Assembly (NCBI GenBank): GCA_034658755.1
Contig: JAYEFV010000147.1
Coordinates: 1-44,115 of the forward strand
Reading direction: 5' to 3'
Length of the DNA stretch: 44,115 nt
From: Thermodesulfobacteriota bacterium
GTDB lineage: Bacteria; Desulfobacterota; Desulfobacteria; Desulfobacterales; UBA11574
The notes under the pieces: generated by a model
What the model was told of the DNA's origin: nothing
What the model saw: only the letters and a program-made list of their open reading frames with translations
The model's database searches: none
Position numbers and translations under genes: made by a program
Shown: positions 2,134 to 24,495 of the stretch, in pieces
Layout: each line of letters opens with the position of its first letter
Numbering within the stretch: the stretch's first letter is position 1

Positions 2134-2135
2134 CC

Positions 2136-2495
2136 ATGGATTTAACCCATATGATCGATACAATTAAAAATCACCCCGCGTATCACCGGGCAGGAATGAT
2201 CCTGTGCCATAACGGGGTGGTGCGCGACACATCACGAGACGGTCGGAAAGTATCGGGTCTGACCCTCTCGGTTGATCATGAAAAACTGTGCCAGGTGCTT
2301 GAAACGTATAAAAGAAAACCCGGGATAGTAGAAATACTCGTTGAAATAGCTGAAAACAGGAACCTGGCCGTGGGCGATGATGTCATGCTGCTGGTTGTTG
2401 CCGGAGACATCCGCGAAAATGTGATCACCGTGCTGAGTGATACACTGAATGCCATCAAAACAACGGTTACCCAAAAAACAGAGTTTTTTGAATAA
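2136..2495 (+). CDS. Short MoaE-like protein (molybdopterin synthase catalytic subunit family)
   Basis: 119-aa ORF. The pattern HNGVVRD...VEILVEIAENRNLAVGDDVMLLVVAGDIRENV resembles MoaE. The assignment is from recall and Moco context only. Confidence 0.55.
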   Translation: MDLTHMIDTIKNHPAYHRAGMILCHNGVVRDTSRDGRKVSGLTLSVDHEKLCQVLETYKRKPGIVEILVEIAENRNLAVGDDVMLLVVAGDIRENVITVLSDTLNAIKTTVTQKTEFFE

Positions 2496-5525: not shown

Positions 5526-6223
5526 ATGCACATAAAGGATTGGCCTGAAGGGGATCGGCCCCGGGAAATTCTTTTGGAGAAAGGCCCGGAGGCTTTGAGT
5601 GATGCCGCGCTTCTTGCTATCCTGCTGAGAACAGGAAGGCAGTGGAAAAATGCCATAGCCCTTGCGAGAAAGATGATAAGCAGGTTTGGCGGGCTCAATG
5701 GGTTGATGATGGCAACACAGGATGACCTGTTGAGTGTCAAGGGGATCGGAAAGGCGAAGATGGCTCAGATACTTGCCGCTATGGAAATTGTAAAACGCCG
5801 GCTACGCCAGCCCCTTGAAAAGATTAACATTATCGAAAATCCCCGTGATCTTTTTGAATATCTAAAGGCATCCATGAGCAATCTTTCCCGTGAGGAATTC
5901 CGGCTTCTTCATCTAAACAGATCAAAACACCTGATTGCGGAAGAGGTTCTGTTCCGTGGAACGGTTGATGAATCAGCGGTTTATGCCCGGGAAGTTGTTG
6001 AATCCGCTTTAAGGAGAAGGGCCTCAGCCCTTATTTTTGTCCATAACCATCCCCCACCGGCCTCGCACAGTTCAGTCCGGAGGATATCGAATTGACGAAA
6101 GCGCTGATAGCCGCTTGCAGAGCCGTTGACATTCCAGTTCTGGATCATGTTATTGTGGGGAATGACGGTTTTTTGAGCATGAAGCAAGAACGACCGGAAA
6201 TTTTTGCAACAGGACAAATTTAG
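5526..6223 (+). pseudogene. radC: RadC-family (JAB/MPN) protein with a frameshift in a C5 run
   Basis: MHIKDWPEGDRPRE...VHNHP is in one frame. [39 protein letters not shown] continues in another frame to TAG 6221-6223. The shift is at the CCCCC run near 6050. Confidence 0.8.
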
Positions 6224-6242
6224 ACAGGATAACAGGATAGAC
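6222..6242. repeat. Left inverted repeat AGACAGGATAACAGGATAGAC bracketing the ORF6N gene
   Basis: Its reverse complement is found at 6877-6898 with one extra T. A related CAGGAT motif lies at 2515-2540. Confidence 0.8.
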
Positions 6243-6254
6243 AAGGTATTTATT

Positions 6255-6842
6255 ATGAATGAAAAAATGATCAAGATTTCTATTGAGCGGATTGAACAGG
6301 CTATTTTTTTAATACGAGGGCAAAAAGTTTTGCTGGATGCTGACCTCGCCCAGTTGTATGGAGTAGAGACAAAAATTCTGAACAAAGCTGTAAAGCGAAA
6401 TTTGGATAGATTTCCAGAGGATTTTATGTTCCAACTTACGGCTGAAGAAGCGAAAAATTTGAGGTTCCAAATTGGAACCTCAAAAAAGCAACGCGGTGGA
6501 CGCCGGTATTTGCCGTATGCCTTTACTGAACAGGGTGTCGCCATGCTTTCCGGCGTATTGAACAGTCCGAGGGCCGTTAAAGTGAATGTTGAAATCATGA
6601 GAGCCTTTGTGCGGCTTCGCCAGTTATTGGCCACCCACACCGATCTTGCACGCAAGATGACTGCCTTAGAGCAAAAATACGATGAGCAGTTCAAAGTTGT
6701 TTTTGACGCGATCCGTGCCTTAATGGCGCCGCCTGAGAAACCACGCAAGAAGATTGGATTTGAAGTAAAGGAGAAGCGTGCTGTCTATGGCCGTCGGGGC
6801 GAAAAACAAAAAAGAAAAACCTCAAAAACAAGCAATAAATGA
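6255..6842 (+). CDS. ORF6N-domain DNA-binding protein (KilA-N/Rha-like)
   Basis: [46 protein letters not shown]...[19 protein letters not shown] is the classic ORF6N signature. The start is set at the MNEKMIK methionine. Confidence 0.8.
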
Positions 6843-6909: not shown

Positions 6910-7404
6910 ATGAAAAAACTGACACTCGCACAACTTGAACATCACTTATTTGCCGCGGCGGATATCCTGCGGGGAAAGATGGACGCATCGGAATTCAAGG
7001 AATACATTTTCGGCATGCTCTTTCTTAAACGGTGCGCGGATGTCTTTGATGAAGAATATGAAAGGATCATAAATTCAAACCTTGCCAGAGGCAGGACAGA
7101 AGGTCAGGCGATCAAACGGGCTGAAGATCCTGCAAGGTATGCGAAATCCTTTTTTGTCCCCAAAACAGCGCGCTGGGGAAAGATTAAACATGCGCACCGC
7201 AATATAGGCGATGAGCTGAATAAGGCATTGCTTGAACTAGAGTATTACAATCGAAGCCTTGAGGGTGTGCTCGGGCATATTGATTTTAACAGGAAAGCCG
7301 GGAAAACAAAAATTCCTGACCGGAAACTTCGCGATTTGATCGATCATTTCAATAAATATCGCCTGAGAAATGCAGATTTTGAGTTTCCTGATCTTATCGG
7401 TGAT
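6910..7404 (+). pseudogene. hsdM: N-terminal fragment of a type I RM methyltransferase HsdM
   Basis: [38 protein letters not shown] is the HsdM N-terminal domain. The frame runs to ...FPDLIGD and then switches to DUF1016 sequence. No AdoMet or NPPF motifs are present. Confidence 0.7.
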
Positions 7405-7860
7405 ATCCGCAGGCTCATTGAAACTGCCAGGCATAATGTTGCAGTTACGGTTAACGCCAGCTTGACCATTCTTTACTGGCAGATCGGCAGCCGTATCCGC
7501 CAAGATATTTTGAAGGAAAAGCGGGCGGACTACGGTGAGAAAATTATCTCGACACTGTCGATACAATTGGTCAAAGAATTTGGAAATGGTTTTTCCCGTC
7601 CCAATCTTTTTCGAATGGTTCGCTTTGCTGAAGTTTTCCCTGAAGGGAAGATTGTCTCGACACTGTCGAGACAATTGAGTTGGAGCCATTTTGTCGCGAT
7701 CCTACTGTTAAAAGATGATCTTCAATGTGATTTCTACACTGAAATGTGTTGATACATGACCGAACTACCGAAACGCAAATTACTGGAACAAAAACTTTAT
7801 AAAGCAGTTGAAACAGTACGGAAGAGGCTGAAGGCGAAACCTATGCTTTTCATATCATAA
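7405..7860 (+). pseudogene. DUF1016/YhcG-family (PDDEXK nuclease) gene remnant fused in frame to the hsdM stub, with an internal deletion
   Basis: [31 protein letters not shown]...[13 protein letters not shown]...[21 protein letters not shown] is the DUF1016 N-terminal half. There is a stop at 7752, and only a tail ...LPKRKLLEQKLYKAVETVRKRL follows (7756-7860). The nuclease core is missing. Confidence 0.6.
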
Positions 7861-9076: not shown

Positions 9077-9165
9077 TAAGACACCTCCCCATCCATAGCA
9101 AACAATGCTATGGACCAGTACGTATTTTACGTAACACAAACACTTTGGATATAGGAGGTGTCTTA
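9077..9165 (+). promoter_or_regulatory. 12-bp perfect inverted repeat that can sequester the transposase SD and start codon
   Basis: TAAGACACCTCC (9077-9088) pairs with GGAGGTGTCTTA (9154-9165). An inner hairpin is CCATAGCA-aacaa-TGCTATGG (9093-9113). Confidence 0.55.
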
Positions 9166-10162
9166 TGAGAGCATACGCTGGAATCGATTTACATTCAAGC
9201 AATATTACATTGGCATTATGGATCAGGATTACAAAAGGCTATTTGGTCGGCGGCAACCAAACAATCTGAACGATGTTTTAAAGGTATTGGAACCATTCAA
9301 GGCTGATCTGGAAGGTGTTATCGTTGAATCCACCTACAACTGGTACTGGCTTGTGGATGGGTTGCAGGAACATGGCTATACGGTCCATCTGGCCAATCCG
9401 TCGGCGATAAAACATACGGATGACAGATGGGACTCTTTTTGGTTGGCGCACATGAAGCACTTAAACATTTTACCTGAAGGTTATATCTACCCAAAAGAAC
9501 AAAGATCTTTACGCGATTTACTGCGAAGAAGACTATTTTTTGTAAGACACAGAACAGCAAATATTTTAAGCCTGCAAAGTACAATTACCAGAAATCTTGG
9601 AATTAAGATTTCGGGTAACAACATCAAAAAGCTTAATATGGATGATGCTAATGAACTATTCGATTCATCGAACCTGGTATTCATGGCCCAAAATAATATC
9701 GCAACAATTAAGCATTTTGGGAAGATAATCAAGGGCATATAAAAAGAAATAAAATCCCAGGTTCAACTTCGCAAAGAGTTTGTAATGCTAACTACCATAC
9801 CTGGAATTGGAATAATCCTGGGTCTTACAATTATGCTTGAGGTAGGAGATATAGGTCGGTTTTCCAAAGTCGGCAATTACTCCTCCTACTGCCGTTGTGT
9901 CAGTAGTAAAAGGCTTTCAAATGGTAAGAAGAAAGGGGAAAACAACAAGAAGAACGGCAATAAGTATTTAGCCTGGGCCTATGTTGAAGCAGCTCACTTT
10001 GCCAAAAGGTACATTCCCAAGGCCCAAAGATTTTATCAGCAAAAAATGGCTAAAGCCAACGGCGCTGTTGCAACCAAGGCCCTTGCCAACAAGTTGGCCC
10101 GTGCTTCCTATTTTATCATGCGAGACCAAGTACCGTTTGATGAAGACATGCTTTTCAAATAA
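9165..10162 (+). pseudogene. IS110-family (DEDD) transposase with an N-terminal frameshift and an in-frame TAA
   Basis: ATG 9165 gives MRAYAGIDLHSSN, then the frame shifts near 9201-9206 to YYIGIMDQDYKRLF...VIVESTYNWYW. TAA at 9740-9742 interrupts ...KGI*KEIKSQV...MLTTIPGIGIILG..., which stays in the same frame. Confidence 0.8.
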
Positions 10163-10325: not shown

Positions 10326-10707
10326 AAAAACAATTGAACACGGTATGGCACCGAAGATTTTCTGGGGTCCGATTCAGCCGTCGTAGCCATAGGCTACTAT
10401 GGCGAAGTCTGCATGGACCAGGGGCCGTGTTTTAAGTATTGTGCATAAAACACAATTGCCTTGAACCTGATGGGCCTCCGGCTCGTAGAGCCTACGCCTC
10501 GGAGAGTGACTGGTGCGGATCAATATATACTGACTGATAACCAATAAAAATGAAATAACGGGTGCGAGATAGGTGGTAAAACAATACCGTGCTGTGGGGA
10601 ACTAAGAGCCAAGCGAAAAAAAAGAGGTATTTTTTTCATGGGAGAGGTGTTTTTTCTCTTGACTTACCCTTTAATGGGTGACCTCTTACCTTTTATATGC
10701 CTATATT

Positions 10708-10744
10708 GGTTGAAAAATGGTGAAATAAACCACTTTTTTCAACC
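10708..10744. promoter_or_regulatory. Near-perfect 14-bp inverted repeat upstream of the MerR-like gene (candidate operator or leader hairpin)
   Basis: GGTTGAAAAATGGT...ACCACTTTTTTCAACC ends 10 nt before ATG 10755. A possible promoter is TTGACT (10669-10674), an 18-nt spacer, then TTATAT (10693-10698). Confidence 0.3.
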
Positions 10745-10754
10745 AAAGGTAAAA

Positions 10755-11249
10755 ATGAATAAGATTTATCCGACTAATCTAGTTCGAAAATTGACCGGGG
10801 TGACTCTTAACCAGTTAAAATATTGGGTGAGAATTAATCTTGTTTCTCCGGAAAGAGATGGCAAGTTTTCTTTCTATTCTTTTAAGGATATTGTTAAGTT
10901 ACGAGTATTGGTTTCATTGAGAAAGAAAGGATTAAGTCTTCAACAGGTAAGAAAAGGGATAAAAAATTTAACCATGATGTTACCAGATGAAGAGCCAATT
11001 ACTAGGCTGATCATCTATACCGATGGAATGGACATGATTGTTGTTGAAAAAGGGAAATATTTCAACGCAATAACAAGACAACAGTATATCCGATTTGACA
11101 CGGAACAGATTGGTGCTGAGATAATTAAGTTACAAAAAACGAATAGTACTTTTATAAAAGAAAAGGCTAATTTTGAAAATAAAAAAAGTGATACCTCTCC
11201 CATATATTTAAGCTATTGCAGGATGGATGAAAGAAAACAATTGCAATGA
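10755..11249 (+). CDS. MerR-family HTH transcriptional regulator with a ~90-aa C-terminal domain
   Basis: LVRKLTGVTLNQLKYWVRINLVSP...YSFKDIVKLRVLVSLRKKGLSLQQV is MerR-type. The start is set at MNKIYPT, whereas the ORF track begins at 10638. It has an ATGA overlap with the next gene. Confidence 0.7.
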   Translation: MNKIYPTNLVRKLTGVTLNQLKYWVRINLVSPERDGKFSFYSFKDIVKLRVLVSLRKKGLSLQQVRKGIKNLTMMLPDEEPITRLIIYTDGMDMIVVEKGKYFNAITRQQYIRFDTEQIGAEIIKLQKTNSTFIKEKANFENKKSDTSPIYLSYCRMDERKQLQ

Positions 11250-12151
11250 ATGTATTAAACACAGTTCGCAATGAATTAAATCAATTAGGTTATTATCTTA
11301 AGGGGTACCCGAATTTAAAGGATTTTGCAGAAATTCACAGAGGTATTGAGTGGAATATTTCGCTTATAGAAAATAGGAATATATTAATATCGTTTGACCC
11401 AAAGCCTGGATTCAGCAAAGGGCTGGACAAGGTTCCAGGAAAAATAGAGCCTTTCTATGCCAAAGAATTTGTATATCTAAATGTGGATGAACCTTACAGA
11501 ATAAAAAACGTACATTCACTTCCATGGAATAGGACGAAGGTAATTGCAAATAGACACATAATCAGCCGTGGGCCATGGCGGATTGTTGGTTTCCCGGATT
11601 CCAGCGGTTTGGTTTTTCATGAAAACTTTATTGGAATTTGGCCAAAAACGAATATGACAATTGAAGTGCTTTCAGCTCTTATTAACTCACCTTTGATCAA
11701 TGCAGTTCTTTATGTGCATGAAGGTAAGCGTTTTAATCGGATTTCTACACTGAAACAAATTCCTGTTTCATTTCCCGGAGCTATTGATACTGAAAGAATC
11801 ACTCAGCTCGTCAAGTACTATGGCAAACTCCGACCAGGATTTAAAAGAGGTTCCGCTACAACACCAATCATCCAAAAATGTATTCAGACACTTATGGAAA
11901 TCGACAGCTTGATTTTAAAAGCCTACGATCTCCCTCCGAGGCTTGAACGCAAGCTGCTGGAATGTTTTAGAGGGTATGCACGGGCTGTTCCATTTGATTT
12001 TCCTGAATATTACCCTGAAGACTTTAGACCTTGTATTCCTTTACACAAATATCTTGAGATGGATTTAAAGCAAGCCAGTGCGGGAGAACTGCTCAAAAGA
12101 ATCACGCCCTTTGATTCCGAAGATATGCATGATTTTTTTATGGACATTTAG
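11246..12151 (+). CDS. Orphan TaqI/Eco57I-type target-recognition-domain protein (no methyltransferase motifs)
   Basis: LKDFAEIHRGIEWN and ...FIGIWPKTNMTIEVLSALINSPLINAVLYV... match the TaqI-like C-terminal specificity domain. They parallel YALWAILNHFLASLWF in the 961-aa MTase. No motif I or motif IV is present. Confidence 0.55.
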   Translation: MNVLNTVRNELNQLGYYLKGYPNLKDFAEIHRGIEWNISLIENRNILISFDPKPGFSKGLDKVPGKIEPFYAKEFVYLNVDEPYRIKNVHSLPWNRTKVIANRHIISRGPWRIVGFPDSSGLVFHENFIGIWPKTNMTIEVLSALINSPLINAVLYVHEGKRFNRISTLKQIPVSFPGAIDTERITQLVKYYGKLRPGFKRGSATTPIIQKCIQTLMEIDSLILKAYDLPPRLERKLLECFRGYARAVPFDFPEYYPEDFRPCIPLHKYLEMDLKQASAGELLKRITPFDSEDMHDFFMDI

Positions 12152-12233
12152 GCAGGGCAATCCTGATGGACGGATACCTTATAACGAATAAAGAATTAAT
12201 GGCTGTGTTTCAGGTTTCAAAAGGAAAAGCGGG

Positions 12234-12959
12234 ATGCAGAAAAACAAAATTGGCAGAAACCAACCGTGCCCCTGCGGTAGTGGAAAAAAATTTAAAAAAT
12301 GTTGCTATGGTAAAATATCGGTGGATAAGTCTTCAAATATGCTTTTGCCACTTTTAAGCGAAATTAATTATGGATCGCCGCCTTTATTAAACGATTCTTT
12401 TTTTATATCGAATCGGGTGCATGAAATTTCTGCACCACGTTTGCTTTATTCCAATTTATTAAATCCCGAAGTAGAGCAAATTGCATCGAAGTTGACAAGC
12501 CAATTGATAGATCGTGGACAAAAAGAAGCTATTGACATTGAAAAGGCAGAAAATACTGATGAGCTTATTAATTTAATGCGCAAGGGGGTAGATGTTTTAA
12601 ATCATGAAATATTAAAAGAAAAGCTATTGCAAAAAAAAGAAACAACGGTTCCAATTATTCTAAATGAATTGAAGAAACCTCAAAGTTCTCAATTTGTTGA
12701 AATATCAATAATAATATTGTACTTCTCAGAGATAGATTGTTCGAATGAGATTTTAGAAATACTACAAAAAACAAACTTAAATGCGTATACGGTCTCATTG
12801 CTTTGCATTCTTTTAGGATTTTATGGTGTAGAAGAATATGTCGAAATATTATGGAAATATTACCATTATTTTAAAGATCGATATCCTAATGAGACATTTA
12901 GTGATGGCCCATTAATAAGTTTATCAGAGATATGGGAAAGAAAAAAGGAAAGTAGTTAG
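12234..12959 (+). CDS. SEC-C metal-binding-motif protein
   Basis: N-terminal NQPCPCGSGKKFKKCC. The remaining ~210 aa are helical and AT-rich-encoded, with no motif I recognise. Confidence 0.65.
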   Translation: MQKNKIGRNQPCPCGSGKKFKKCCYGKISVDKSSNMLLPLLSEINYGSPPLLNDSFFISNRVHEISAPRLLYSNLLNPEVEQIASKLTSQLIDRGQKEAIDIEKAENTDELINLMRKGVDVLNHEILKEKLLQKKETTVPIILNELKKPQSSQFVEISIIILYFSEIDCSNEILEILQKTNLNAYTVSLLCILLGFYGVEEYVEILWKYYHYFKDRYPNETFSDGPLISLSEIWERKKESS

Positions 12960-13254: not shown

Positions 13255-16140
13255 ATGCAAGAATTACCAGAAAATAAAACTGGGCATGAAAAGTCGATTA
13301 GTGATTCCATCCGAAATACAATAAGTTCGGCTTTTCAACAGGTTGGGTACTCCAAAAGAATGATTTTGCATGATGTAAGTTTTGTTGGGGAGGGTGGAAA
13401 ACCTCACAAAGCAGATATGGTGGCCTATTCGAGTTCCCTGCGTCAAGATGCAGACACGGCTGTAATATCTGTAAAAGGGTCTGAAAACACGGAAAAAATT
13501 CAATTTGATGCGGATATTTCCCCATTCCGTGCATTGGCGACTCCAATTATCGTACTTGCAGAATACAGAGCTATTCATGGTGTGGCAGAACCCAGAGTGA
13601 GAACCGTAGGTCTGTGTAAAGATGCAGCTACATTTAAAAAGGAAAAAGCAGAAAGCAATATTATTCCCCTTTCCAGATTTGAAGAATACCTTAGAAATAA
13701 TCAACAATTTTTCACGCCACGTCGTTTAGAGGAGGCAAAGTTGGTTCCCGTTCCCGAACAACTCACGTTGTTTGATATAGCTCCGCACCTCAATAAGCAA
13801 GCATTGCAAATCGCTGAGAAAGAACTTGTTGATCGATTTGAAAAAGGTGTCAGGGAAGTTATAAAATTCACAAGTGACGAATATAAGCAACGAGTTATAA
13901 ATGCAGCTATTTCAGTACTTGGTGCCCGAATCCTTCGCGACAGATTGAAGAAAAATTGGCCACTCCCTTCCGGCGCAATAGAATTCTTATCTTTTGCTAA
14001 GAAATTTTTACCTGGCTATTTTGATATATCCAAAAAAATTGCTGGAATGCTCGACCCTCTGCTTAATCGATTACCCTCTGCTTTTGATTTTTCCCAGGTA
14101 AGTCTGGATATGGTTGGAAAATTTTATGCTTCAGCTTTTGTTACAAAAGAACTCCGGGACAAATGGGGGATTCACTACACTAAATCTTTGTTAGCAAGAA
14201 CACTTTTGAGGCGGATGCCTATTGAAGAGCTTCCCCCTGACAAGCGTATTCTTGCGGATCCTACTTGTGGTTCAGGAAGCCTTTTAACAGCAGGCTACGA
14301 ACGACTCGCGAATGCTACTTATCTTAGAATCCCTCAGAATGAAAGGCATCAGCGACTTGTTGGCACCATTTTCGGCAATGACAGAGATCAATTTGCCGCC
14401 GAAATAACGCGCATGACTTTGATGCTGTTTCATCCGCCCCACAAGAATAATTGGAAAGTAACTCATTTTGACGCAGAAAAGGATAGCTTTGGACGTAGAT
14501 GGACAAAGGAAATTGAAGTGACACCAACTATCATCGTAGCAAATCCGCCCTTTGGAGGAAAAGGTGGAGGTGCATCTACCACAGTCAAACCAAGAACAAG
14601 ACACCAACCTGATAGATCTGCTTTAATATTAAATCACTGTTTGAATATTCTTCCTGAAAACGGTTTGTTAGGTATTATTCTTACCGAAACAGTATTAGAT
14701 CAGCAGTTATTGAAAACAACCAGACATCGGGTTTTAAAGGAATGCCAAATCATAGAACAGTGGGATATTCCGGTGGGATGGTTTGATAATGTAAATCGTC
14801 CTGCCATGGCGTGGATCTTACGCAAGACCGCTCCATCGTCCAAAACGGTTTATATCCGTTCTCTTTCTGATGTACCATCCTTAGGAAGGGAGGCGAAATT
14901 ACATGGGACTATCCAAATTGATTTTGCCAATCCGCCTGAACACCTTGTTCCAACAGTTTTTGATGATATTTTGTCTAAAATGGAAATGAGTCCAAATTGC
15001 ATCAAGGATTATTACAGTGTGATGAATGGACTTCAACCGCTAAAAGGAAAGGTTACGACGGAAAAATCTGAGAAGGCTCATTCATGGAGCGGCAATGCTA
15101 TAGGTACTGATCCCTATACAGATTGCAGTAATGGTAATAAAGGCTGGTTGGAATTAATTAATGAAAATTTTGACGAAAGGAGCCAAAGGTTAGATTTGCG
15201 AAAACATCTGGATCAAAATGCACCTATGGTCATGCTTAGGGCAAATCGAAAAGCTCCCTGGAAATATAAATGGAGCTCAATGGCACTGATCAATATACCA
15301 GATAATTCCCGAAAAGTAGTGGCACCCTCAGCAAGTTATCATGTGACATTTTCTAAAAGCAATAATGATATTGATAAAACGAATAATGTCTATGCATTAT
15401 GGGCTATTTTGAACCATTTTCTTGCCAGCCTATGGTTTCATGAACGCCAGAGGGTTCAGACAATTCCTACCAAAAATTACAGGGATTTCCCATTGCCGAA
15501 AGTTTGGAACATAAAGAATATCAAGTTATTAGCTTCAACCGCAAAAGAACTCATTGACACAAAAAGAACAATCTATTCAAAACCGATACTTGACCCTCAA
15601 GATAGTCCAAAAATCAAGGAAATGGTGAAGAAAATTGATGATATTATCTATCAGATGTATGAAATCAAACAAGGAGAAAGACGACGGATCGAAGCCTTGT
15701 TTGGCGAAGAACAGCGTCCTTTACTTGTAGACATTGAGCAAACAAAAAAAGCTGCCCCAAAATCAAATATTGGTTCCGGTATCATTTATGACGAACCGGA
15801 ATGGGAAACCACTTGCGAAACCTTAGAACTCCACTTTGAAAAAAACCGTATAAGGCTCACTATTGACGGATTGACAGATTGTTCTGAAGATCTCGGATCT
15901 GCCGAAGATGGGATCTGGCTGAAAATAATTCCTGCCATGCCGGGATGGCTGTTGGAGAATGGGGCTGTGGGCTGGGTTGACATTACTACGGATAGCGCCA
16001 AAAAATTAAAACGATCCCCTGAAAAATACGTCCTTGGATTTCGCCTTCACAAGAACGCCTACAAGACACAAGATGAGATTGACAAATGTTTGCTCCTTGC
16101 CTCTAATGCGGAAATGAAAAAGGCGGAGGCAAATGGGTAA
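13255..16140 (+). CDS. Type IIG/IIL-like gamma-class N6-adenine DNA methyltransferase with N-terminal nuclease-like domain, TaqI-type TRD and an unassigned C-terminal domain
   Basis: Motif I is ILADPTCGSGSLL (~14255-14280) and motif IV is IVANPPFGG (14542-14553). The TRD reads ...VYALWAILNHFLASLWF. The product is 961 aa. An AGAGAGG SD precedes the ATG. Confidence 0.85.
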   Translation: MQELPENKTGHEKSISDSIRNTISSAFQQVGYSKRMILHDVSFVGEGGKPHKADMVAYSSSLRQDADTAVISVKGSENTEKIQFDADISPFRALATPIIVLAEYRAIHGVAEPRVRTVGLCKDAATFKKEKAESNIIPLSRFEEYLRNNQQFFTPRRLEEAKLVPVPEQLTLFDIAPHLNKQALQIAEKELVDRFEKGVREVIKFTSDEYKQRVINAAISVLGARILRDRLKKNWPLPSGAIEFLSFAKKFLPGYFDISKKIAGMLDPLLNRLPSAFDFSQVSLDMVGKFYASAFVTKELRDKWGIHYTKSLLARTLLRRMPIEELPPDKRILADPTCGSGSLLTAGYERLANATYLRIPQNERHQRLVGTIFGNDRDQFAAEITRMTLMLFHPPHKNNWKVTHFDAEKDSFGRRWTKEIEVTPTIIVANPPFGGKGGGASTTVKPRTRHQPDRSALILNHCLNILPENGLLGIILTETVLDQQLLKTTRHRVLKECQIIEQWDIPVGWFDNVNRPAMAWILRKTAPSSKTVYIRSLSDVPSLGREAKLHGTIQIDFANPPEHLVPTVFDDILSKMEMSPNCIKDYYSVMNGLQPLKGKVTTEKSEKAHSWSGNAIGTDPYTDCSNGNKGWLELINENFDERSQRLDLRKHLDQNAPMVMLRANRKAPWKYKWSSMALINIPDNSRKVVAPSASYHVTFSKSNNDIDKTNNVYALWAILNHFLASLWFHERQRVQTIPTKNYRDFPLPKVWNIKNIKLLASTAKELIDTKRTIYSKPILDPQDSPKIKEMVKKIDDIIYQMYEIKQGERRRIEALFGEEQRPLLVDIEQTKKAAPKSNIGSGIIYDEPEWETTCETLELHFEKNRIRLTIDGLTDCSEDLGSAEDGIWLKIIPAMPGWLLENGAVGWVDITTDSAKKLKRSPEKYVLGFRLHKNAYKTQDEIDKCLLLASNAEMKKAEANG

Positions 16141-16951
16141 GATACAATATGATTATGAAGTCATATTTATCGATGTAGGTCAGGGAGATGCCACACTTAT
16201 ACATCAATTATCAAATATGCATTCTGTTTTAGTTGATGCAGGAATTGCAAAGCCGGTCTTAACCGCCCTTAGGCAGAGCGCTCAACTTAAAGCAATTTTC
16301 ATTACCCATTGGGATAAAGATCATATCGGCGGTATGTCAGCCGTTATTAACTGGTTATCGAATAAATATCAGAAAGCCGTCGATGTTTTCATAAATCTTC
16401 AAGATACGTCCACTAAGATTGCAAAAATATTAAGCAGAACACTTGATGAAGCATGTGAGAATGGAACAGTTGAGTTAAAACATGCATGTAACGATTCAAA
16501 GAATCCGATTGAAATAATCAATGGAAGTTTTTTGATATTATGGCCTCCTTATAGAAAAGTTATAAGGTATCCTGATAACAGAAATTTTGGTTCTTTAATT
16601 CTTCGCTTTGATGTTGGAGATTTCAGCTTAGTTCTCGGCGGTGATGCTGGTGGAGATGTTTGGCCTCTTGTTGACCAGACAGTACTTAAAGCAGATGTTT
16701 TCAGGTATCCCCATCATGGCGGAGAGCTTTTCACAGGCAAAAACAGTTGGTCGGCAGAGGATCTTATATCGAAAGTGAATCCAGACTGGATAGTGGTATC
16801 CGTGGGTGTAAACAATCCCCACGGCCATCCTTCTGAAGAATTTATTAATGCTCAATCACGGCATCCGAATATACAGGTTCTTTACACAACCGAAGGAAAT
16901 ATCAATTTGCAAATAAAAAGCGCCGTTGGAAATATAAGAGTGAGGCAATAA
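16133..16951 (+). CDS. Stand-alone ComEC/Rec2-type metallo-beta-lactamase-fold hydrolase
   Basis: Motifs are FIDVGQGDATLI, ITHWDKDHIGG (16306-16332), GGDAGGD and YPHHGG. It overlaps the upstream gene by 8 nt, and its stop directly abuts the mod ATG. Confidence 0.85.
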   Translation: MGKIQYDYEVIFIDVGQGDATLIHQLSNMHSVLVDAGIAKPVLTALRQSAQLKAIFITHWDKDHIGGMSAVINWLSNKYQKAVDVFINLQDTSTKIAKILSRTLDEACENGTVELKHACNDSKNPIEIINGSFLILWPPYRKVIRYPDNRNFGSLILRFDVGDFSLVLGGDAGGDVWPLVDQTVLKADVFRYPHHGGELFTGKNSWSAEDLISKVNPDWIVVSVGVNNPHGHPSEEFINAQSRHPNIQVLYTTEGNINLQIKSAVGNIRVRQ

Positions 16952-19660
16952 ATGGCAAAGAAAAAGAAAAGCACACGAGTCCAGGACTATCGCCATGACA
17001 AAAAACGGAAAAACAATCCCCCCATCGGGATGGTGAGTTATGAGCCAAAAATCTCTGAGCCTAAAATAAAACGCTATGGCTATGATCCGCATCTTTCGCC
17101 TCAACTGATCTGGGCTGGCAAGCCCGGGCTCAAAACGATTGAGGTTGAAGACCGGTCAGGTATAGAAGTGGACTCTGTTTCTCTCCATGTACACGAACGG
17201 GTCAGTGCGCAGGCCATTATTAAGTCTGTTCAGCGAGAAGATAAACAGATGAAACTCTTTGCAGATCCTCAATTGCCTCTCCATAAGGCGGTTCAGTTTT
17301 ATTTGCACGACGTTGACTGGGCAAATCGTTTGATTCTTGGGGACTCTCTTTTGGTGGCAAATTCCCTGATCGAACGTGAGATGATGGCCGGCAAGGTACA
17401 GATGATCTACATGGACCCGCCTTACGGGGTGAAATATGCCAGCAATTTTCAGGCCAGGATTGACCGGCGGGATGTAAAAGACAGCGACGAACATCTCACC
17501 CGGGAGCCCGAAATGATCAAGGCCTACCGGGACACCTGGAAACTGGGGATTCATTCCTACCTCACTTATATGCGTGATCGTTTGAGGGTATGCAGGGATC
17601 TGCTTGTAGAATCCGGATCAATATTTGTGCAGATTAATGATGAGAATCTGCACTTGGTCAGGACTATTATGGATGAGGTATTCGGGGGTTCCAATTTTAT
17701 ATCTCTCATAACATTTACTAAAACTACTGGCTTTGCTTCTGAACTTTTAGATTCGATTGCAGATTATATCCTATGGTACAGCAAAGATAAAAAACAGGTG
17801 AAGTTTCGACAGCTTTTCCAACCGAAAACAATGGGCCTGGAGGGAGCAAAGCACTATGATTTTATTGAATTACCGGATGGAACTCGCAGAAGACTTATTT
17901 TAGAGGAAAAAATTGATCTCACCTTGCTACCATCTGAAGTCAAATTCTTTTCCTCTGACCAATTAACATCGCAGGGTGAAACGCCAAGTGGTTCAGTTCC
18001 GGTTAAGTATGAAGACCGTATTTTTAATTGCCCTACTGGGCTTCATTGGAAAACAACACCAGAGGGAATTAGGAGACTTGGTGAGCAAAGAAGGTTATTG
18101 GTGCAAGGCAACATGCCTCGATACGCGAGATTCCTCGATGATTTTCCTGTTATCCCTATTAATAATGTTTGGGGAATGTTTCAACTCGCAGAAAAAACTT
18201 ACGTAGTTCAAACAGCACCTGGTGCAGTTCAACGCTGCATTCTCATGACTACCGATCCGGGCGATCTGGTTTTTGATCCAACTTGCGGGTCTGGTACGAC
18301 AGGCTTTGTGGCCGAGCAATGGGGCCGGCGCTGGATTACATGTGATACCAGTCGGGTTGCACTGGCTCTGGCGCGACAAAGGCTTCTCACCGCCACTTTT
18401 CCCTATTATAAGATTGATGATGAAGTCAACGGACAAAATCCCGGTTACGGTTTTAACTATAAAACAGTTCCGCATATTACATTAAAATCCATTGCACAAA
18501 ATACACGCATTGATCCTCTGGCTGAAAAATACAATCCTCTTATTACTGATGCTCTAAAGCAATTTAATCAATCTGCAAACACCTCTTTTAAGGAGTGGGA
18601 GGTACCATTCGAACCTGATAAAAAGTGGTCAAAGAAAGCCAGGGAACATTTCAAAGAATTCCGCATGTTAAAGCAAAAAAAGCAGGCGGCAATTGATAAA
18701 ATAATTGCAGAGGATGCGCCACAGGAAATTCTTTATGATCAGCCTGAAATTGACCGAAAAATTGTCAGGGTTTCAGGTCCTTTCACTGTTGAAGCCATTC
18801 CTCCGCCCATATATGAAGTTGAATCGCCGATTGGTGGCGAACCTGAATCTATTGAAAGAGATGATGCCATCGAAGCCCGTCCTGGTGTTGAAAACCATAT
18901 CCCCACCCTTATCAATCTATTGCAAAAGGATGGGGTCACTTTCCCTGACAATAAAAAACTGACATTTGATGTCCTGACAACTCGAACAGGTGGGGTACTG
19001 CATGCAGAAGGGGAGGCAGAAGGCAAAAAAATTGCTATTTCATTCGGGCCGCTTCACGGTCCTGTCTCTTTAATGCAGGTGGAAGATGGATTGAGAGAAG
19101 CCTACATGGGAGGCTATGACGAAATCATCTTTTGCGGTTTTGCCTTTGATCCTGAAGCGCAGGCAGCAATAAATGCCAACGTTCATCCTAAAGTCAAAGC
19201 CCATGCCTCTCATATCCGGCCGGACGTTATCTTAAAGGATGCCGAAGGCGGTGATTTGTTAAAAACCACGGCTTCAAGTCAGCTATTTACCGTATTTGGC
19301 GAGCCGGATATAGACCTTGTTAAAAATAAGGGCGAGTTTACAATAAAGCTCCTTGGCGTGGATGTATATGATCCCATCTCCGGTGTTGTACACTCTGAAA
19401 ATGTGGGACGGGTGGCAGCATGGTTCGTGGACACCGACTATAACAAACGAACTTTTTGTATTGTCCAGGCGTTCTTTCCAAATAAAAGCGCCTGGAAAAA
19501 GTTAGAGCGGGCTTTGAAAGGTAAGCTTGATGAGGATCGTTTTGAAATGCTTACAGGTCATGTCTCTTTGCCGTTTCGTCCCGGAAATCATAAAAGGGCT
19601 GCTGTAAAAGTTCTTGATCAGCGCGGTAATGAAGTCATGAAGGTGGTGGATCTTGAATAA
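16952..19660 (+). CDS. mod: Type III-like restriction-modification methyltransferase (beta-class Mod)
   Basis: Motif IV MIYMDPPYG (17414-17425) lies upstream of motif I FDPTCGSGTTGFVAEQWGRRWITCD (18275-18301). The product is 902 aa. Confidence 0.9.
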   Translation: MAKKKKSTRVQDYRHDKKRKNNPPIGMVSYEPKISEPKIKRYGYDPHLSPQLIWAGKPGLKTIEVEDRSGIEVDSVSLHVHERVSAQAIIKSVQREDKQMKLFADPQLPLHKAVQFYLHDVDWANRLILGDSLLVANSLIEREMMAGKVQMIYMDPPYGVKYASNFQARIDRRDVKDSDEHLTREPEMIKAYRDTWKLGIHSYLTYMRDRLRVCRDLLVESGSIFVQINDENLHLVRTIMDEVFGGSNFISLITFTKTTGFASELLDSIADYILWYSKDKKQVKFRQLFQPKTMGLEGAKHYDFIELPDGTRRRLILEEKIDLTLLPSEVKFFSSDQLTSQGETPSGSVPVKYEDRIFNCPTGLHWKTTPEGIRRLGEQRRLLVQGNMPRYARFLDDFPVIPINNVWGMFQLAEKTYVVQTAPGAVQRCILMTTDPGDLVFDPTCGSGTTGFVAEQWGRRWITCDTSRVALALARQRLLTATFPYYKIDDEVNGQNPGYGFNYKTVPHITLKSIAQNTRIDPLAEKYNPLITDALKQFNQSANTSFKEWEVPFEPDKKWSKKAREHFKEFRMLKQKKQAAIDKIIAEDAPQEILYDQPEIDRKIVRVSGPFTVEAIPPPIYEVESPIGGEPESIERDDAIEARPGVENHIPTLINLLQKDGVTFPDNKKLTFDVLTTRTGGVLHAEGEAEGKKIAISFGPLHGPVSLMQVEDGLREAYMGGYDEIIFCGFAFDPEAQAAINANVHPKVKAHASHIRPDVILKDAEGGDLLKTTASSQLFTVFGEPDIDLVKNKGEFTIKLLGVDVYDPISGVVHSENVGRVAAWFVDTDYNKRTFCIVQAFFPNKSAWKKLERALKGKLDEDRFEMLTGHVSLPFRPGNHKRAAVKVLDQRGNEVMKVVDLE

Positions 19661-22580
19661 TCAGAATGATTTTAAAGGCTCCAGACACCTTGCCGTAGAT
19701 GAGCCCATCATCAACTCTCCATTTGAAGAGCCGAAACAATATTGGGTTTATGACGCTTTTACCGGCCAGCCTGCAAAAGTCCCGGGCCGCAGGCCTGCCC
19801 ATTACTATTTCCGCAGTCGAAGGCGGGCCGATGCCGCCCAAATCAGTCTTTTTGCTGATGAAGAAATGGTTGAACTCGAATCGGTCAACAAAATTCGTAA
19901 CCGGGTTAAAAAATGGCGGGAAGGCGGATATAAAAATGTTGGCCACATTACCAGACAGCTTCTCAGACACTGGACCTATCCTGATCGTGAAAAAAAACTT
20001 TTTTTCTGTCAGCTTGAAGCAGCAGAGACCATCATCTGGCTGAACGAAATCCACAAGTCCGGCAGACACGGCCTAAAGATTCCTTATGATGAGCCTCTGG
20101 AAGAAGGCTTTCAGGACTTAAGGCGCCAGTGTCTTAAAATGGCTACGGGAAGCGGTAAGACCGTGGTTATGGCAATGATTATTGCATGGAGCGTCCTGAA
20201 CAAAGTCCACAACAGGCAGGCCAGATGGTGCTCTGATACGGTATTGTTGGTTTGTCCGAACCTTACCATCAAAGAGCGTTTGGGAGGTACACCAAAGGGA
20301 CAAAACGGCAGCACTGAACCTGAGAGGGCGCTTGTTGCCGGTGCCAAGGGCAATTATTATGATAAATTTGACCTTGTTCCCAGTTCCTTGAAAGAATATC
20401 TGGGACAGGCAAAACTCCTGATCACCAACTGGCATCAGTTTGCAGAGATAGATGATCGCAGGAAACGGAGCATTATCCAGCGTGGTGTGGAGAGCCCCTC
20501 GGCTTTTTGCAACCGTGTTTTGCGGGAACTGGGTAGCGCCAGGAATATTCTGGTCTTAAATGACGAAGCCCACCATGCCTACCGCCCGGCGCCTGTTGAT
20601 GAAAATAATAGAAAAAAAACAAAACTTACGGCCGAAGAAAAAAAGACCAGGGAAAAAGCCACAGTTTGGATTAGTGCTCTGGATAAAATCAACAAAGCAA
20701 GAGAGATCAATCTTGTCGTAGATCTTTCGGCTACACCTTTCTATATCCAGGGGAGCGGTTACCCTGAAGGCAGTCCATTTCCCTGGATTGTATCTGACTT
20801 TGGCCTTGTTGATTCCATCGAATGCGGCATTGTAAAGATACCGCAGGTTCCGGTTGATAGTAATTCAGGCCGGCCTATTCCAGAGTATTTTGCTCTATGG
20901 AAATGGATAAATGACAGGTTGCCTGCCAGAGAGAGGGCTACGGGCAGGCGTAAACCCAAGCCAGAGGCAATACTCCGTGAAGCTGATGGAGCTTTAAAGC
21001 AATTGGCCGGGCAATGGAAAGCAAAGTATGAAGAATTCAAGAGTATAAACCATCCTGTACCGCCCACGATGATTATTGTTTGCGACAATACGAATATTGC
21101 AGAGCTGCTACATGAATATGTCAGTGGTGAACGCTGGGAGAAGTATCAGGATGAAAAAGGAAAGAAAAGAAAGAGGAAAGTTTACGGAACAGGCGGAGTG
21201 CTTCCCGAGTTACTTTCAAACAATGAGAGGCTTGAAAATACAATCCGTATCGATAGCAAACTTCTAAATGAAGCAGAAGAACGGGATGACGGGCAGACCA
21301 AAGAGGATGCCGCTGAATCCTTGCGCAAAAAAATAAGCACTGTGGGAAAGGTTGGTGAGCCAGGTCAGGATATTCGTTGCATAGTTTCCGTCTCCATGCT
21401 TACCGAAGGCTGGGATGCACAGAATGTGACACAAATTTTAGGCCTTCGGGCCTTCCTTTCTCAACTATTGTGTGAACAGGTTATAGGTAGAGGCCTGAGA
21501 CGAACACAGTACGATGATTTTGCTGTTCCTGAATATGTTGATGTTTATGGAATTCCCTTTGAAGTTATCCCGGTAAAGAAAAAACCGGTTGGTCCAGCCC
21601 CTCCACCAACAAAAACGACCCTTATCCAGTCTCTTTCAGAAAGGGAGCATTTGAAGATTGAGTTTCCGAGGGTTGAAGGATTCGTTTATCAAATAAAAAG
21701 CAAAATCAGGGCTGATGTAGGAAATATTGAACCATTGAGTATTGATCCAAATATCGAGCCCACCGAAACGGTTGTGCGGGCGAGGGTCGGTTATCAAGTA
21801 GGCTCACCAGGATTAGTCGGTCCCGGTGAAAAAGTTACTCAAACTCGTGAGGCGTTTTATGAGAGTATTCGTCCCCAGCAAATTCATTATGAAATTTCAA
21901 GAAGAATAACTGCATCGCTATTGAATCAAGATGATTTTAAAATGCAGGCCAGACAAATGCTTTTTCCGCAGGTGTTACAAATTGTCAGACAGTATGCAAA
22001 GCCTTTATCTGAAGGGGGGCGTATTGAATATAATGCTATTGATTCTCGTGAGATAGGCCTTGAACGTTATGTGCAGATTATCGTTGAACGACTGTGTACA
22101 GCCATTCGACCGGATGAAGGAAGTGGTGAATCGCCACTGCTACCTCGTTTAGAACGATTCCGGCCCCGAGGGTCCACTCAGGAAGTTCTTTTCAGGACTT
22201 CGCGCCAGGCAAAACAAACAATCAAGAGCCATGTTTCCCATGTGGTTCTTGACACCAAAACATGGGAACGTTCAGTTGCTTTCCATTTGGAACAGAGTGA
22301 ACTGGTGGAATCATATGTTCGCAATGATCATCTGGATTTTACAATTGATTACGAATTCAATGGTTCTCAGCATTCTTATATGCCCGATTTTTTGGTCAGG
22401 CTGAAAAATGGAACAAACCTTATACTCGAAGTAAAAGGATTTGAAGACGAGCAGGCACGTGCGAAGCATGAAGCTGCAAAAAGGTGGTGTGACGCGGTCT
22501 CCGACTGGGGAGAGATGGAAAAATGGAAATTTGATGTATGCAGAGATCCTAAAAAGCTTAAAGGTCTACTGGGAAAATAG
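19653..22580 (+). CDS. res: Type III-like restriction enzyme Res subunit (SF2 helicase plus C-terminal PD-(D/E)xK nuclease)
   Basis: It has Walker A MATGSGKT (20139-20162), a DEAH box LNDEAHHAY (20562-20576) and helicase motif SMLTEGWDA. The C-terminal YMPDFLV...LILEVKG lies at 22383-22436. A TTG start is preceded by AAGGTGG. Confidence 0.9.
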   Translation: MNNQNDFKGSRHLAVDEPIINSPFEEPKQYWVYDAFTGQPAKVPGRRPAHYYFRSRRRADAAQISLFADEEMVELESVNKIRNRVKKWREGGYKNVGHITRQLLRHWTYPDREKKLFFCQLEAAETIIWLNEIHKSGRHGLKIPYDEPLEEGFQDLRRQCLKMATGSGKTVVMAMIIAWSVLNKVHNRQARWCSDTVLLVCPNLTIKERLGGTPKGQNGSTEPERALVAGAKGNYYDKFDLVPSSLKEYLGQAKLLITNWHQFAEIDDRRKRSIIQRGVESPSAFCNRVLRELGSARNILVLNDEAHHAYRPAPVDENNRKKTKLTAEEKKTREKATVWISALDKINKAREINLVVDLSATPFYIQGSGYPEGSPFPWIVSDFGLVDSIECGIVKIPQVPVDSNSGRPIPEYFALWKWINDRLPARERATGRRKPKPEAILREADGALKQLAGQWKAKYEEFKSINHPVPPTMIIVCDNTNIAELLHEYVSGERWEKYQDEKGKKRKRKVYGTGGVLPELLSNNERLENTIRIDSKLLNEAEERDDGQTKEDAAESLRKKISTVGKVGEPGQDIRCIVSVSMLTEGWDAQNVTQILGLRAFLSQLLCEQVIGRGLRRTQYDDFAVPEYVDVYGIPFEVIPVKKKPVGPAPPPTKTTLIQSLSEREHLKIEFPRVEGFVYQIKSKIRADVGNIEPLSIDPNIEPTETVVRARVGYQVGSPGLVGPGEKVTQTREAFYESIRPQQIHYEISRRITASLLNQDDFKMQARQMLFPQVLQIVRQYAKPLSEGGRIEYNAIDSREIGLERYVQIIVERLCTAIRPDEGSGESPLLPRLERFRPRGSTQEVLFRTSRQAKQTIKSHVSHVVLDTKTWERSVAFHLEQSELVESYVRNDHLDFTIDYEFNGSQHSYMPDFLVRLKNGTNLILEVKGFEDEQARAKHEAAKRWCDAVSDWGEMEKWKFDVCRDPKKLKGLLGK

Positions 22581-22929: not shown

Positions 22930-23094
22930 TCGGCACTTTTCACAACAAAAGGGAAAAAATTAGGAAGAATTCCCGTGTTGGCATATTTATCAAGCAGTAT
23001 ATGGGCATCGCCGGCACAGACACTGGTCAAGACAGTTAGTGGATATTCCTCTTGGGTATAGTTGTGAATATTTGCAAATGTTGAAGGAACAGTG

Positions 23095-24495
23095 ATGAAG
23101 AAAAAGGAATTAAAGGAACTTATTGAACAAGGCGAGGGTTATTTTGTCGAATTTAAAGAACAGATCGGGGTGGGTCTCGATAAAGAGATGGTTGCTTTTG
23201 CAAATGCCTCTGGAGGAAAGATTGTCATAGGGGTGACGGATAGAGGTAAAATTATCGGATGCACAACCGACAATACAGTACGATCTAAAATTCAGGATAT
23301 TGCCAATAACTGTGATCCCCGGATTTTGATACATATCGAAACAGTGCGGTACGAAGGCGTAAAACTGCTTGTTGTTTCAGTAGATGAAAGTTTCGATAAG
23401 CCTGTGCGTTGCTCAAAGGGTTTCTTTTTAAGAGAGGGGCCTAATTCTCAGAAATTGACAAGAAATGAAATATTAGCGCTTGCTGCTGGTGCCGGGAAAT
23501 TCAAATTTGATATGCAGCCATGCAGAAGTTTCAATTATCCTGAAGATTTTGAAGACACAAAATGGCGCCATTTTTTAGATACAACAGGAATTGCTCCTCC
23601 TGAAAACAGTGAAGATTTACTGACAAATTTAGGTTTTGCAGAAGATAAAGCAGGATTTCGGATTACAAATGCCGGAGCGCTTTTTTTCGGCAGGGATATT
23701 GAATCTCATATTCGTCACAACTTTATTACCTGTGTGCTTTTTAAAGGTACTACCAAAACAAAGATACTTGATCGGAAGGATTTTAAGGTTGATCTACTTT
23801 CTAACTATGAAAATGCATTTCGCTTTTTACAGCAGCATCTCAAATTTGAGTACTTAATTGAAGATGGAGGGCCTCGAAAAGAAATTCCGGAAATTCCCCT
23901 AGAAGTTTTACGGGAGGGGCTTGTAAATGCAATTGTCCATCGAGATTATTATGAGGAAGGCGCTGGCATCCTTGTTGAAATCTACGACAACCGTGTGGAA
24001 ATAATCAATCCCGGCCGCCTTCTTTTTGACAAAAGTAAGTTTGGAAAGCTGAGTGTAGCGCGAAATCCTATAATATTCGATGCGTTTTATCGACTTGGGA
24101 TCACCGAGAAAATCGGCTCCGGTATTAATAGAATGCGTGAAGCTATGACTGAAAGGGGTATTAAAATTGCGTTTGATACAGAGGACTTTTTTATTGTAAC
24201 CTTAACAAGGCCGGAAACTACACAAAAAGAAGTTATCCCCCAAGTTACCCCCCAAGTTACCCCCCAAGCTTTGAGTGATGTTGAATTGAGGATATTAGGA
24301 TTTTGCCATGAAGAGAGATCAGCTTCAGAGATCATAAATTTCACAGGAATGAATCCGGATTATATCCGGAAAGATATCATTCCCAAATTGATTGAAAAGG
24401 ACTTTTTGGTTTTAACAATACCGAATAAACCGAGAAGCCCTCACCAAAAGTATATCCTCACAGAAGCGGGAATGAAACATGTCAAAACAATGTAG
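23095..24495 (+). CDS. AlbA_2 (Schlafen-like) DNA-binding domain / HATPase_c_4 ATP-binding protein with C-terminal wHTH
   Basis: The N-terminal region GEGYFVEFKEQ...MVAFANASGGKIVIGV is AlbA_2. The central region LREGLVNAIVHRDYYEEGAGILVEIYDNRVEIINPG is HATPase-like. Confidence 0.8.
   Translation: MKKKELKELIEQGEGYFVEFKEQIGVGLDKEMVAFANASGGKIVIGVTDRGKIIGCTTDNTVRSKIQDIANNCDPRILIHIETVRYEGVKLLVVSVDESFDKPVRCSKGFFLREGPNSQKLTRNEILALAAGAGKFKFDMQPCRSFNYPEDFEDTKWRHFLDTTGIAPPENSEDLLTNLGFAEDKAGFRITNAGALFFGRDIESHIRHNFITCVLFKGTTKTKILDRKDFKVDLLSNYENAFRFLQQHLKFEYLIEDGGPRKEIPEIPLEVLREGLVNAIVHRDYYEEGAGILVEIYDNRVEIINPGRLLFDKSKFGKLSVARNPIIFDAFYRLGITEKIGSGINRMREAMTERGIKIAFDTEDFFIVTLTRPETTQKEVIPQVTPQVTPQALSDVELRILGFCHEERSASEIINFTGMNPDYIRKDIIPKLIEKDFLVLTIPNKPRSPHQKYILTEAGMKHVKTM

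Follow-up and report, generated by a model that had tools for sequence, protein, structure and literature searches.

Why should a metallo-beta-lactamase (MBL) domain of the type found in the competence protein ComEC be encoded on its own, fused at both its start and its stop codon to DNA methyltransferase genes? The question is raised by a contig of 44,115 nucleotides (nt) from a Thermodesulfobacteriota bacterium (GenBank assembly GCA_034658755.1, contig JAYEFV010000147.1, positions 1 to 44,115), here called the window (the loci of its relatives carry L numbers), in which an open reading frame (ORF) of 272 amino acids (aa) carries such a domain. In this report, we describe this protein (MBL) together with the methyltransferase encoded directly upstream (MT1), and our data suggest that the pair is an apparently new restriction-modification (R-M)-like system that descends from type IIG enzymes and employs a ComEC-type MBL nuclease in trans. 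We lean, if only slightly, towards the reading that the two genes form an autonomous module, with MT1 marking and reading DNA and MBL as the nuclease. The operon of the window also holds a type III-like methyltransferase (Mod) and a restriction endonuclease (Res), all four genes lying on the + strand, with the following features.

13255..16140, + strand: MT1, type IIG/IIL-like N6-adenine DNA methyltransferase, 961 aa (Pfam N6_Mtase and Eco57I; Foldseek)
13303..13653, + strand: N-terminal PD-(D/E)xK-like domain of MT1 with a degenerate active site, aa 17-133 (secondary structure of the model)
14080..14859, + strand: methyltransferase core of MT1, aa 276-535 (Pfam and PADLOC alignments)
14935..15654, + strand: variable block of MT1, putative target-recognition region, aa 561-800 (55-72% identity with the closest relative, L008)
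16125-16129, + strand: ribosome-binding site (GGAGG) of the MBL gene, within the 3' end of MT1 (read from the sequence)
16133..16951, + strand: MBL, stand-alone ComEC-type metallo-beta-lactamase-fold protein, predicted DNase effector, 272 aa (profiles, fold and residues)
16952..19660, + strand: Mod, type III-like methyltransferase, 902 aa, separable module (Pfam N6_N4_Mtase; PADLOC MTase_III PDLC03632, 618.7 bits)
19653..22580, + strand: Res, BPTD_3080-family restriction endonuclease, 975 aa, separable module (NCBIfam NF046055; Pfam ResIII and Tn7_TnsA-like_N)

The MBL ORF (16133-16951, from the list of open reading frames and its translation) opens with an ATG at 16133 within the last codons of MT1 (TAA 16138-16140), giving an overlap of 8 nt; its own stop codon (TAA 16949-16951) is followed directly by the ATG of Mod at 16952, and the Mod stop overlaps the Res start (Res from 19653, Mod to 19660), all four genes being stop/start coupled. 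As a preliminary description of this DNA had pointed out, the MBL gene is therefore fused to a methyltransferase gene at either end. Scans for promoters and terminators over 12.8-23.2 kb gave no excess over the shuffled expectation.

Profile, PDB sequence and fold searches all put the ComEC domain nearest to MBL, and it is on this agreement that we assign it as a stand-alone ComEC-type MBL protein. The four motifs quoted in the preliminary description, FIDVGQGDATLI (aa 12-23), ITHWDKDHIGG (aa 57-67), GGDAGGD (aa 169-175) and YPHHGG (aa 192-197), are all present, and its association of them with the DNA-degrading MBL domain of ComEC/Rec2 was borne out. Pfam gives only Lactamase_B (PF00753; 29.4 bits against a gathering cut-off of 22.7) in the 272 aa, with neither a competence membrane channel (PF03772) nor an N-terminal OB/DUF4131 domain, and in the best NCBIfam match, ComEC_Rec2 (TIGR00361, E 2e-19), aa 8-252 of MBL align to model positions 441-659 only, at a score of 69.2 bits that is far under the curated cut-off of 190. 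These data confirm MBL as a homologue of one ComEC domain and not a ComEC, lacking the channel and OB domain as first described. When a profile of 34 family members was compared with PDB sequences, the ComEC beta-lactamase-like domain 9ic4 came first (E 4.8e-21) and four full-length ComEC structures came next, and glyoxalase II, RNase Z, RNase J and Apyc1 matched over the generic N-terminal motif only. The AlphaFold (AF2) model of MBL is of high predicted local accuracy (pLDDT 94) and predicted template-modelling score (pTM 0.93), with no segment below pLDDT 50 and no disordered stretch; its best Foldseek match is again 9ic4 (E 2.3e-17, template-modelling score (TM) 0.76), followed by the phosphorylcholine esterase Pce (TM 0.70) and then by tRNase Z and RNase J. 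There were 266 PDB fold matches at E<=0.001, and the best 50 of these 266 are mostly MBL-fold proteins. The non-nucleic-acid hydrolase glyoxalase II, which the preliminary description had named as a competing identity, thus goes no further than the generic N-terminal motif. Two unnamed viral proteins in BFVD, F8UBN2 (354 aa) and B6CXF5 (940 aa), matched the MBL model nearly as well as ComEC did (TM 0.70-0.71, E ~1e-14).

The catalytic residues of MBL are intact. The motif H598-x-D600-x-D602-H603 of ComEC is of the form HxDxDH (PMC12455585), and ComEC H598, D600, D602, H603, D700 and H725 correspond to MBL H59, D/H61, D63, H64, D171 and H194. About 85 full-length homologues of 40-95% identity were found; in 34 sequences covering the same range, D19, H59, D63, H64, D171, H194 and H195 are invariant, position 61 is D or H, and H232 is nearly invariant. 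In ComEC, the substitutions H598A, D602A, H603A and D700A leave almost no activity and D600A lowers it about 5-fold, H725 being a putative DNA-binding residue (PMC12455585). The ComEC domain is an Mn2+-dependent endonuclease and 5'-3' exonuclease that prefers single-stranded DNA (ssDNA) and lacks a DNA-binding domain of its own, and its fold neighbours are RNase J and Pce, the latter its closest structural homologue (PMC12455585). MBL is under purifying selection, with a ratio of nonsynonymous to synonymous substitution rates (dN/dS) of 0.14-0.38, which together with the homologues and the Pfam match puts its ORF well beyond a chance reading frame, and its N-terminus (MGKIQYDYEV...), as read from the sequence, holds no hydrophobic segment, so MBL is presumably cytoplasmic, unlike the ComEC domain.

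The upstream partner, MT1, is of the type IIG/IIL kind, and throughout the family its nuclease domain has degenerated, in agreement with the preliminary description. Its AF2 model (pLDDT 83) matched the type IIG enzyme BpuSI best in Foldseek, over 958 columns and hence its full length, and further fold matches were CamA, M.BseCI (methyltransferase and recognition domain), BrxX/PglX, DrdV and MmeI; in the model, a single chain has the layout of nuclease, linker, methyltransferase and recognition domain. The methyltransferase core is the most conserved stretch of the family, with an invariant motif I (DPTCGSG, aa 335-341) and, in motif IV (NPPF), invariant N430, P432 and F433. The N-terminal aa 17-133 have the alpha-beta-beta-beta-alpha-beta order of a PD-(D/E)xK core, D53 lying in the second strand and S72-x-K74 in the third; these candidate residues are not conserved in the relatives, where D53 is replaced by K, A or N and K74 by Q, Y or F, and the residues of the domain that are invariant (Y58, R63, D65, A69 and V70) form no nuclease motif. 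Pfam searches with the N- and C-terminal parts of MT1 taken separately, and likewise with the termini of Mod, gave nothing significant.

How MT1 might choose its target is indicated by comparison with L008, the closest relative, in which aa 281-560 and 801-961 are 90-100% identical to the window and aa 561-800 only 55-72%. This mosaic is visible only in pairwise comparisons of close relatives; across 33 MT1 sequences, no recognition domain stands out as sharply hypervariable in the conservation profile. For the window and L008, MBL is much less diverged than MT1 (synonymous divergence, dS, 0.17 vs 0.40), and we take the mosaic together with this contrast to suggest that a target-recognition region was exchanged or diversified; from the analogy to type IIG/IIL enzymes, we infer that aa 561-800 are that region. 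A second block of MT1, at 13855-14094 (aa 201-280), has a likewise low identity of 55-72% with L008.

Relatives were collected from metagenomes and genomes, giving about 30 loci with upstream DNA and 12 non-identical full pairs. The pairing is strict: in all of the approximately 30 loci, an MT1 homologue (919-980 aa) lies directly 5' of the MBL gene, mostly with an overlap of 8 nt. The pairing is present in the completely sequenced genome of Desulfosarcina alkanivorans (L126; MT1 49% identical), it holds in the L127 branch at 36% identity, and where MT1 homologues have fallen to 27% identity (L130, L131) the MBL gene is still directly next. The wider arrangement of a methyltransferase and an MBL gene reaches into the next similarity tier: of three MBL proteins taken from this tier of an exhaustive search of representatives, two are preceded by a gene of the N6_Mtase/Eco57I/MmeI type encoding 892-909 aa (L153, L154); the third (364 aa) is paired, at L156 2802-6095, with a 731-aa protein without a Pfam domain in place of a methyltransferase. 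In L154, the distant pair is followed on its 3' side by a gene for a trypsin-co-occurring domain (Trypco1; 6063-6401), and this gene and the 731-aa partner in L156 together hint at partner swapping. The nearest non-paired relative examined (L132, 34% identity) is a genuine split ComEC, with a Competence gene beside the MBL gene.

MT1 and MBL also diverged together, their identity matrices being correlated (r = 0.80; Mantel test, 0 of 2000 permutations), and both genes are free of internal stops and under purifying selection (dN/dS 0.10-0.38), also between loci without Mod and Res. Outside these loci, megablast of the four-gene region against Escherichia coli genomes and plasmids gave no match, tblastn of MBL against plasmids (PLSDB) gave nothing but relatives at about 30% identity, which are fused to S-layer or lamin-tail proteins, and IMG/VR held no close relatives; a search of genome contigs with the family-alignment profile listed 80 loci of about 26-33% identity, which are ordinary ComEC genes, and the MBL clusters at E<=1e-30 number 41 among 1.84 billion representatives. 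The preliminary description had the MBL gene embedded between two methyltransferase genes, which is true of the window; as a conserved trait it did not stand, only the upstream gene being constant. MT1 is thus the only conserved neighbour of MBL, and the pair is an old, stable core.

The genes downstream of MBL are variable, and on this ground the pair is the stable core to which type III modules were added at least twice and from which they were repeatedly lost; Mod and Res are a separable type III-like system and not part of the MBL core. Res scores 974.3 bits against NCBIfam NF046055 (cut-off 800), adjoins the large N6_N4 Mod and combines a ResIII helicase with a C-terminal TnsA-like PD-(D/E)xK nuclease. 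The window Mod is 41-45% identical to Mods that stand beside BPTD_3080 Res genes on plasmids without MT1 or MBL, and plasmids of Thermus and Picosynechococcus carry such a Mod/Res pair. Among the relatives, the window-type Mod and Res follow the MBL gene in the window only. Elsewhere, it is followed by other bona fide type III Mod and Res genes, again with gene overlaps (PDLC03644, 578 bits, and PDLC03653, 585 bits; L129, L106, L096/L097 and L110), by short N-terminal pieces left over from the window-type Mod (aa 1-29, 1-67 or 2-114; at least five lineages) or by unrelated genes or insertion sequence (IS) elements (L005, L100, L107, L126, L127 and L130). In L008, whose MBL is 95% identical, a 5.3-kb deletion took out the greater part of Mod and Res; its 108-aa ORF (10820-11146; window counterparts 16952-17152 and 22441-22580) is an in-frame fusion of Mod aa 1-67 with the last ~41 aa of Res, also found in L009-L011, L092 and L093. 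We considered the short ORFs after MBL as a conserved third gene and rejected the idea, because stand-alone BPTD_3080-type Mods share the same N-terminus and the L008 ORF is a Mod-Res deletion junction. The GC content of the Mod-Res region (0.45 vs 0.37-0.42) weakly fits a separate origin. The Mod remnants in L105 (1159-1374), L109 (4486-4701), L112 (10817-11032) and L001 (10807-11208) are 76-78% conserved at the aa level vs 62-65% for the MBL gene of the same loci, and in two lineages that are not related the break falls at one and the same Mod residue, about 67; these conserved remnants could reflect a site prone to deletion or a small protein that has been kept.

We propose a model whereby MT1 kept the N6-adenine methyltransferase and DNA-recognition parts of an ancestral type IIG enzyme and lost the conserved PD-(D/E)xK active site, with MBL acting in its place. 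The host would be protected by adenine methylation, which MT1 would carry out after binding to its target sequence; on unmethylated foreign DNA, MBL bound to MT1 would nick or cut and then degrade in the 5'-3' direction. MBL probably depends on a metal, which in ComEC is Mn2+, and probably acts both as an endonuclease and as a 5'-3' exonuclease; because MBL has no DNA-binding domain of its own, it would need to be directed or licensed by MT1 at unmethylated target sites. The dead PD-(D/E)xK domain of MT1 is a plausible docking site for MBL, and translational coupling would hold both members of such a complex at matched levels; in the window, a complete type III-like Mod/Res has been joined to the pair in one operon. 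That MBL substitutes for the degenerate nuclease of MT1, as the preliminary description predicted, is supported by the BpuSI-like architecture of MT1, by the lost catalytic residues and by the presence of the MBL gene next to it in every relative examined. An autonomous module with a role in defence is further supported by the experimentally shown DNase activity of ComEC-like MBL effectors elsewhere (PMC12799240), by the toxin-antitoxin, IS and R-M remnant genes of the surrounding island and by the block in the C-terminal part of MT1, whose mosaic resembles specificity diversification. A more ambitious form of this model, in which MT1-MBL founds a class of R-M systems with an MBL-fold restriction subunit, the dead domain serves as a docking or regulatory platform, cleavage is handed over to a processive 5'-3' DNase and layering with type III R-M recurs, is tentative and in our estimate falls somewhat short of even.

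Several observations weigh against the module as we propose it. The substrate-contact serine of ComEC, S728, is replaced by G or A in the MBL family, and the preference of the ComEC domain for ssDNA means that double-strand restriction would not be guaranteed. The window MT1 itself keeps D53, S72 and K74 and may have residual nuclease activity, given that some PD-(D/E)xK enzymes work with SxK. The family is rare, with about 13 clusters above 200 bits among the 1.84 billion representatives. Moreover, the pair is repeatedly fused to type III modules or their remnants and could for this reason be not fully autonomous.

This last point leads to the alternative that MBL is an accessory of a four-gene composite (MT1-MBL-Mod-Res), degrading for example the DNA ends made by Res or serving as a second effector, which we regard as unlikely. 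The coupling of all four window genes would be expected of such a composite, and the second, unrelated type III pair, which comes after the MBL gene with overlaps in L129, L106, L096/L097 and L110, and the truncated window-type Mods of at least five other lineages suggest an ancestral four-gene state within the clade of at least 60% identity. Nevertheless, the pair stands alone in deep and in many shallow relatives (L005, L100, L107, L126, L127, L130, L131, L153 and L154), MT1 and MBL are under purifying selection in loci having the pair alone, BPTD_3080 Mod/Res systems occur without either of them, and Res has a PD-(D/E)xK nuclease of its own.

It is also conceivable that MBL is no DNase and acts on another phosphodiester or ester substrate, such as RNA, cyclic nucleotides (as Apyc1 does) or phosphorylcholine esters (as Pce does). 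We find this quite improbable: ComEC is the best match at every level, and Pce, although second-best by fold, is in turn the structure closest to the ComEC DNase domain itself. The fold matches include RNase J and RNase Z, but the invariant partner of MBL is a DNA methyltransferase and the related defence protein HamM cuts DNA and not RNA (PMC12799240). Relatives of MBL have weak matches to Pfam Anti-Pycsar_Apyc1, and Apyc1 matches MBL among PDB sequences at E 1e-4; this match is confined to the N-terminal motif, and Apyc1-like phage MBL proteins of about 231 aa are a poor fold match (TM 0.37-0.39), so the assignment as Apyc1 was rejected. We give similarly little credence to a pair outside defence, either a selfish addiction module or an epigenetic or DNA-processing pair that combines, for example, methylation-dependent regulation with a nuclease for repair or turnover. 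R-M-like pairs may behave as addiction modules, the family resides in the chromosomes of slow-growing sediment bacteria, and the lack of a sharply hypervariable recognition domain in the MT1 profile noted above fits such a role; against it stand neighbours of the defence-island type (toxin-antitoxin pairs, IS elements, type III R-M, AbiEii and Schlafen/AlbA_2 ATPases), a genomic position that differs among relatives, the mosaic MT1 of close relatives and the lack of close relatives in IMG/VR or on plasmids.

The MT1-MBL pair lies within an island at about 3-25.7 kb of the window, inserted between molybdenum-cofactor genes. This island of about 23 kb splits the molybdenum-cofactor cluster (window 124-2495 and 26155-26637), with MoCF, MobA-like and MoaE genes on one side and MoaC on the other. 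It contains a helix-turn-helix (HTH) gene, an MNT/HEPN pair, RadC, an ORF6N/Rha gene, an HsdM_N-DUF1016_N fragment and a split IS110 transposase, and further a MerR gene, a 301-aa ORF without a Pfam match, a SEC-C gene, a Schlafen/AlbA_2 ATPase and EcsC. The fragment, a 280-aa ORF at 6910-7752 (+ strand) with the N-terminal domains of HsdM and DUF1016, resembles a type I R-M remnant or a rearranged gene, and the IS110-family transposase, in two ORFs at 9158-9742 and 9785-10162 (+ strand; DEDD_Tnp_IS110 and Transposase_20), is probably disrupted by a frameshift or stop or decaying. Upstream of MT1, at 10638-12959 (+ strand), the MerR-type regulator, the 301-aa protein and the SEC-C-motif protein form a trio that is conserved in L008, reduced to MerR in L103 and absent from more distant loci; its MerR protein weakly matches the MADS mad1 model (E 2e-4). 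Just downstream of the operon, at 23092-24495 (+ strand), is the Schlafen/AlbA_2 protein with HATPase_c_4 and a Fic-like_C region, distant homologues of which (about 26% identity) lie downstream of the module in L094 (1182-1985) and L106 (7220-8326); its fold has a weak PADLOC link to pAgo-associated proteins.

PADLOC 2.0, NCBIfam 20 and Pfam hold no model for the MT1-MBL pair, and full-text literature searches, whose coverage was partial so that an earlier description is possible, found no description of the pairing. The known restriction endonuclease folds are PD-(D/E)xK, HNH, GIY-YIG, PLD and half-pipe, and to our knowledge, none of the restriction enzymes described so far has a catalytic domain of the MBL fold. 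If our model is true, an MBL-fold restriction subunit would be a new catalytic solution for restriction, whose outcome could be a nick followed by 5'-3' degradation and not a clean double-strand cut. It would also be a second route by which the ComEC nuclease domain was recruited into immunity, licensed by a methyltransferase and not by a protease. The mosaic recognition region of MT1 suggests that its specificity is programmable in the way known from MmeI-type enzymes, the repeated acquisition and loss of type III genes beside the pair offers a natural experiment on the stacking of defence systems, and the strict two-gene architecture makes the restriction idea directly testable.

The relation of the pair to known systems can be summarized as follows. 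Compared with the ComEC domain (BLACT) of Moorella glycerini (9ic4; PMC12455585, PMC8579336), MBL is alike in fold and size (272 vs 266 aa, TM 0.76), and both have the HxDxDH motif, the downstream Asp and the HH(G) motif and lack a DNA-binding domain of their own. In contrast, MBL is stand-alone, without OB fold or membrane channel, is 23% identical and presumably cytoplasmic where the ComEC domain is extracytoplasmic, and is encoded with a DNA methyltransferase where ComEC is encoded with competence genes. ComEC-like MBL proteins also occur as separate genes in the Hachiman, Avs1/Avs2, Lamassu and DRT systems (HamM and its relatives), in which they are DNase effectors (PMC12799240), and the best PADLOC matches of MBL are LmuA (PDLC03854), RTasMBL and Avs1a. 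These nucleases are proenzymes, blocked by insertions until a fused trypsin-like protease cuts the insertions out (PMC12799240). The window MBL, in contrast, has a compact model with no low-confidence insertion and an upstream methyltransferase as its partner, and neither the window operon nor the examined gene tables of related loci, that of L154 included, contain a protease domain. Since insertion and protease neighbour are both lacking, MBL must be controlled in another way, and membership in the protease-activated family associated with HamM, Avs1a, Lamassu and DRT was rejected.

The Mod and Res of the window are members of the BPTD_3080 type III-like R-M systems, whose canonical plasmid loci lack MT1 and MBL; their fusion in one operon with MT1-MBL is seen in this lineage only. 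PglX/BrxX of BREX and MAD2 of MADS are, like MT1, large Eco57I-type proteins with a non-catalytic N-terminal region that serve as the self-marking and recognition component of a multi-protein defence, but BREX has no dedicated nuclease, unlike the MT1-MBL system proposed here. MT1 scores far below the equivalog cut-offs of these families (22 vs 400 bits and 34 vs 720 bits), an assignment to BREX or MADS was accordingly rejected, and the window operon has no PglZ, BrxC, BrxL or MAD3-8 partner domains. It is with the type IIG/IIL enzymes BpuSI, MmeI and DrdV that MT1 shares its layout, namely a nuclease-like domain at the N-terminus joined through a helical linker to a gamma-class N6-adenine methyltransferase, with the recognition region at the C-terminus, as well as, in our proposal, the logic by which one polypeptide reads and methylates the site and triggers cleavage. 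The difference is that the PD-(D/E)xK residues are not conserved in MT1 and that the nuclease would come in trans, with an MBL fold.

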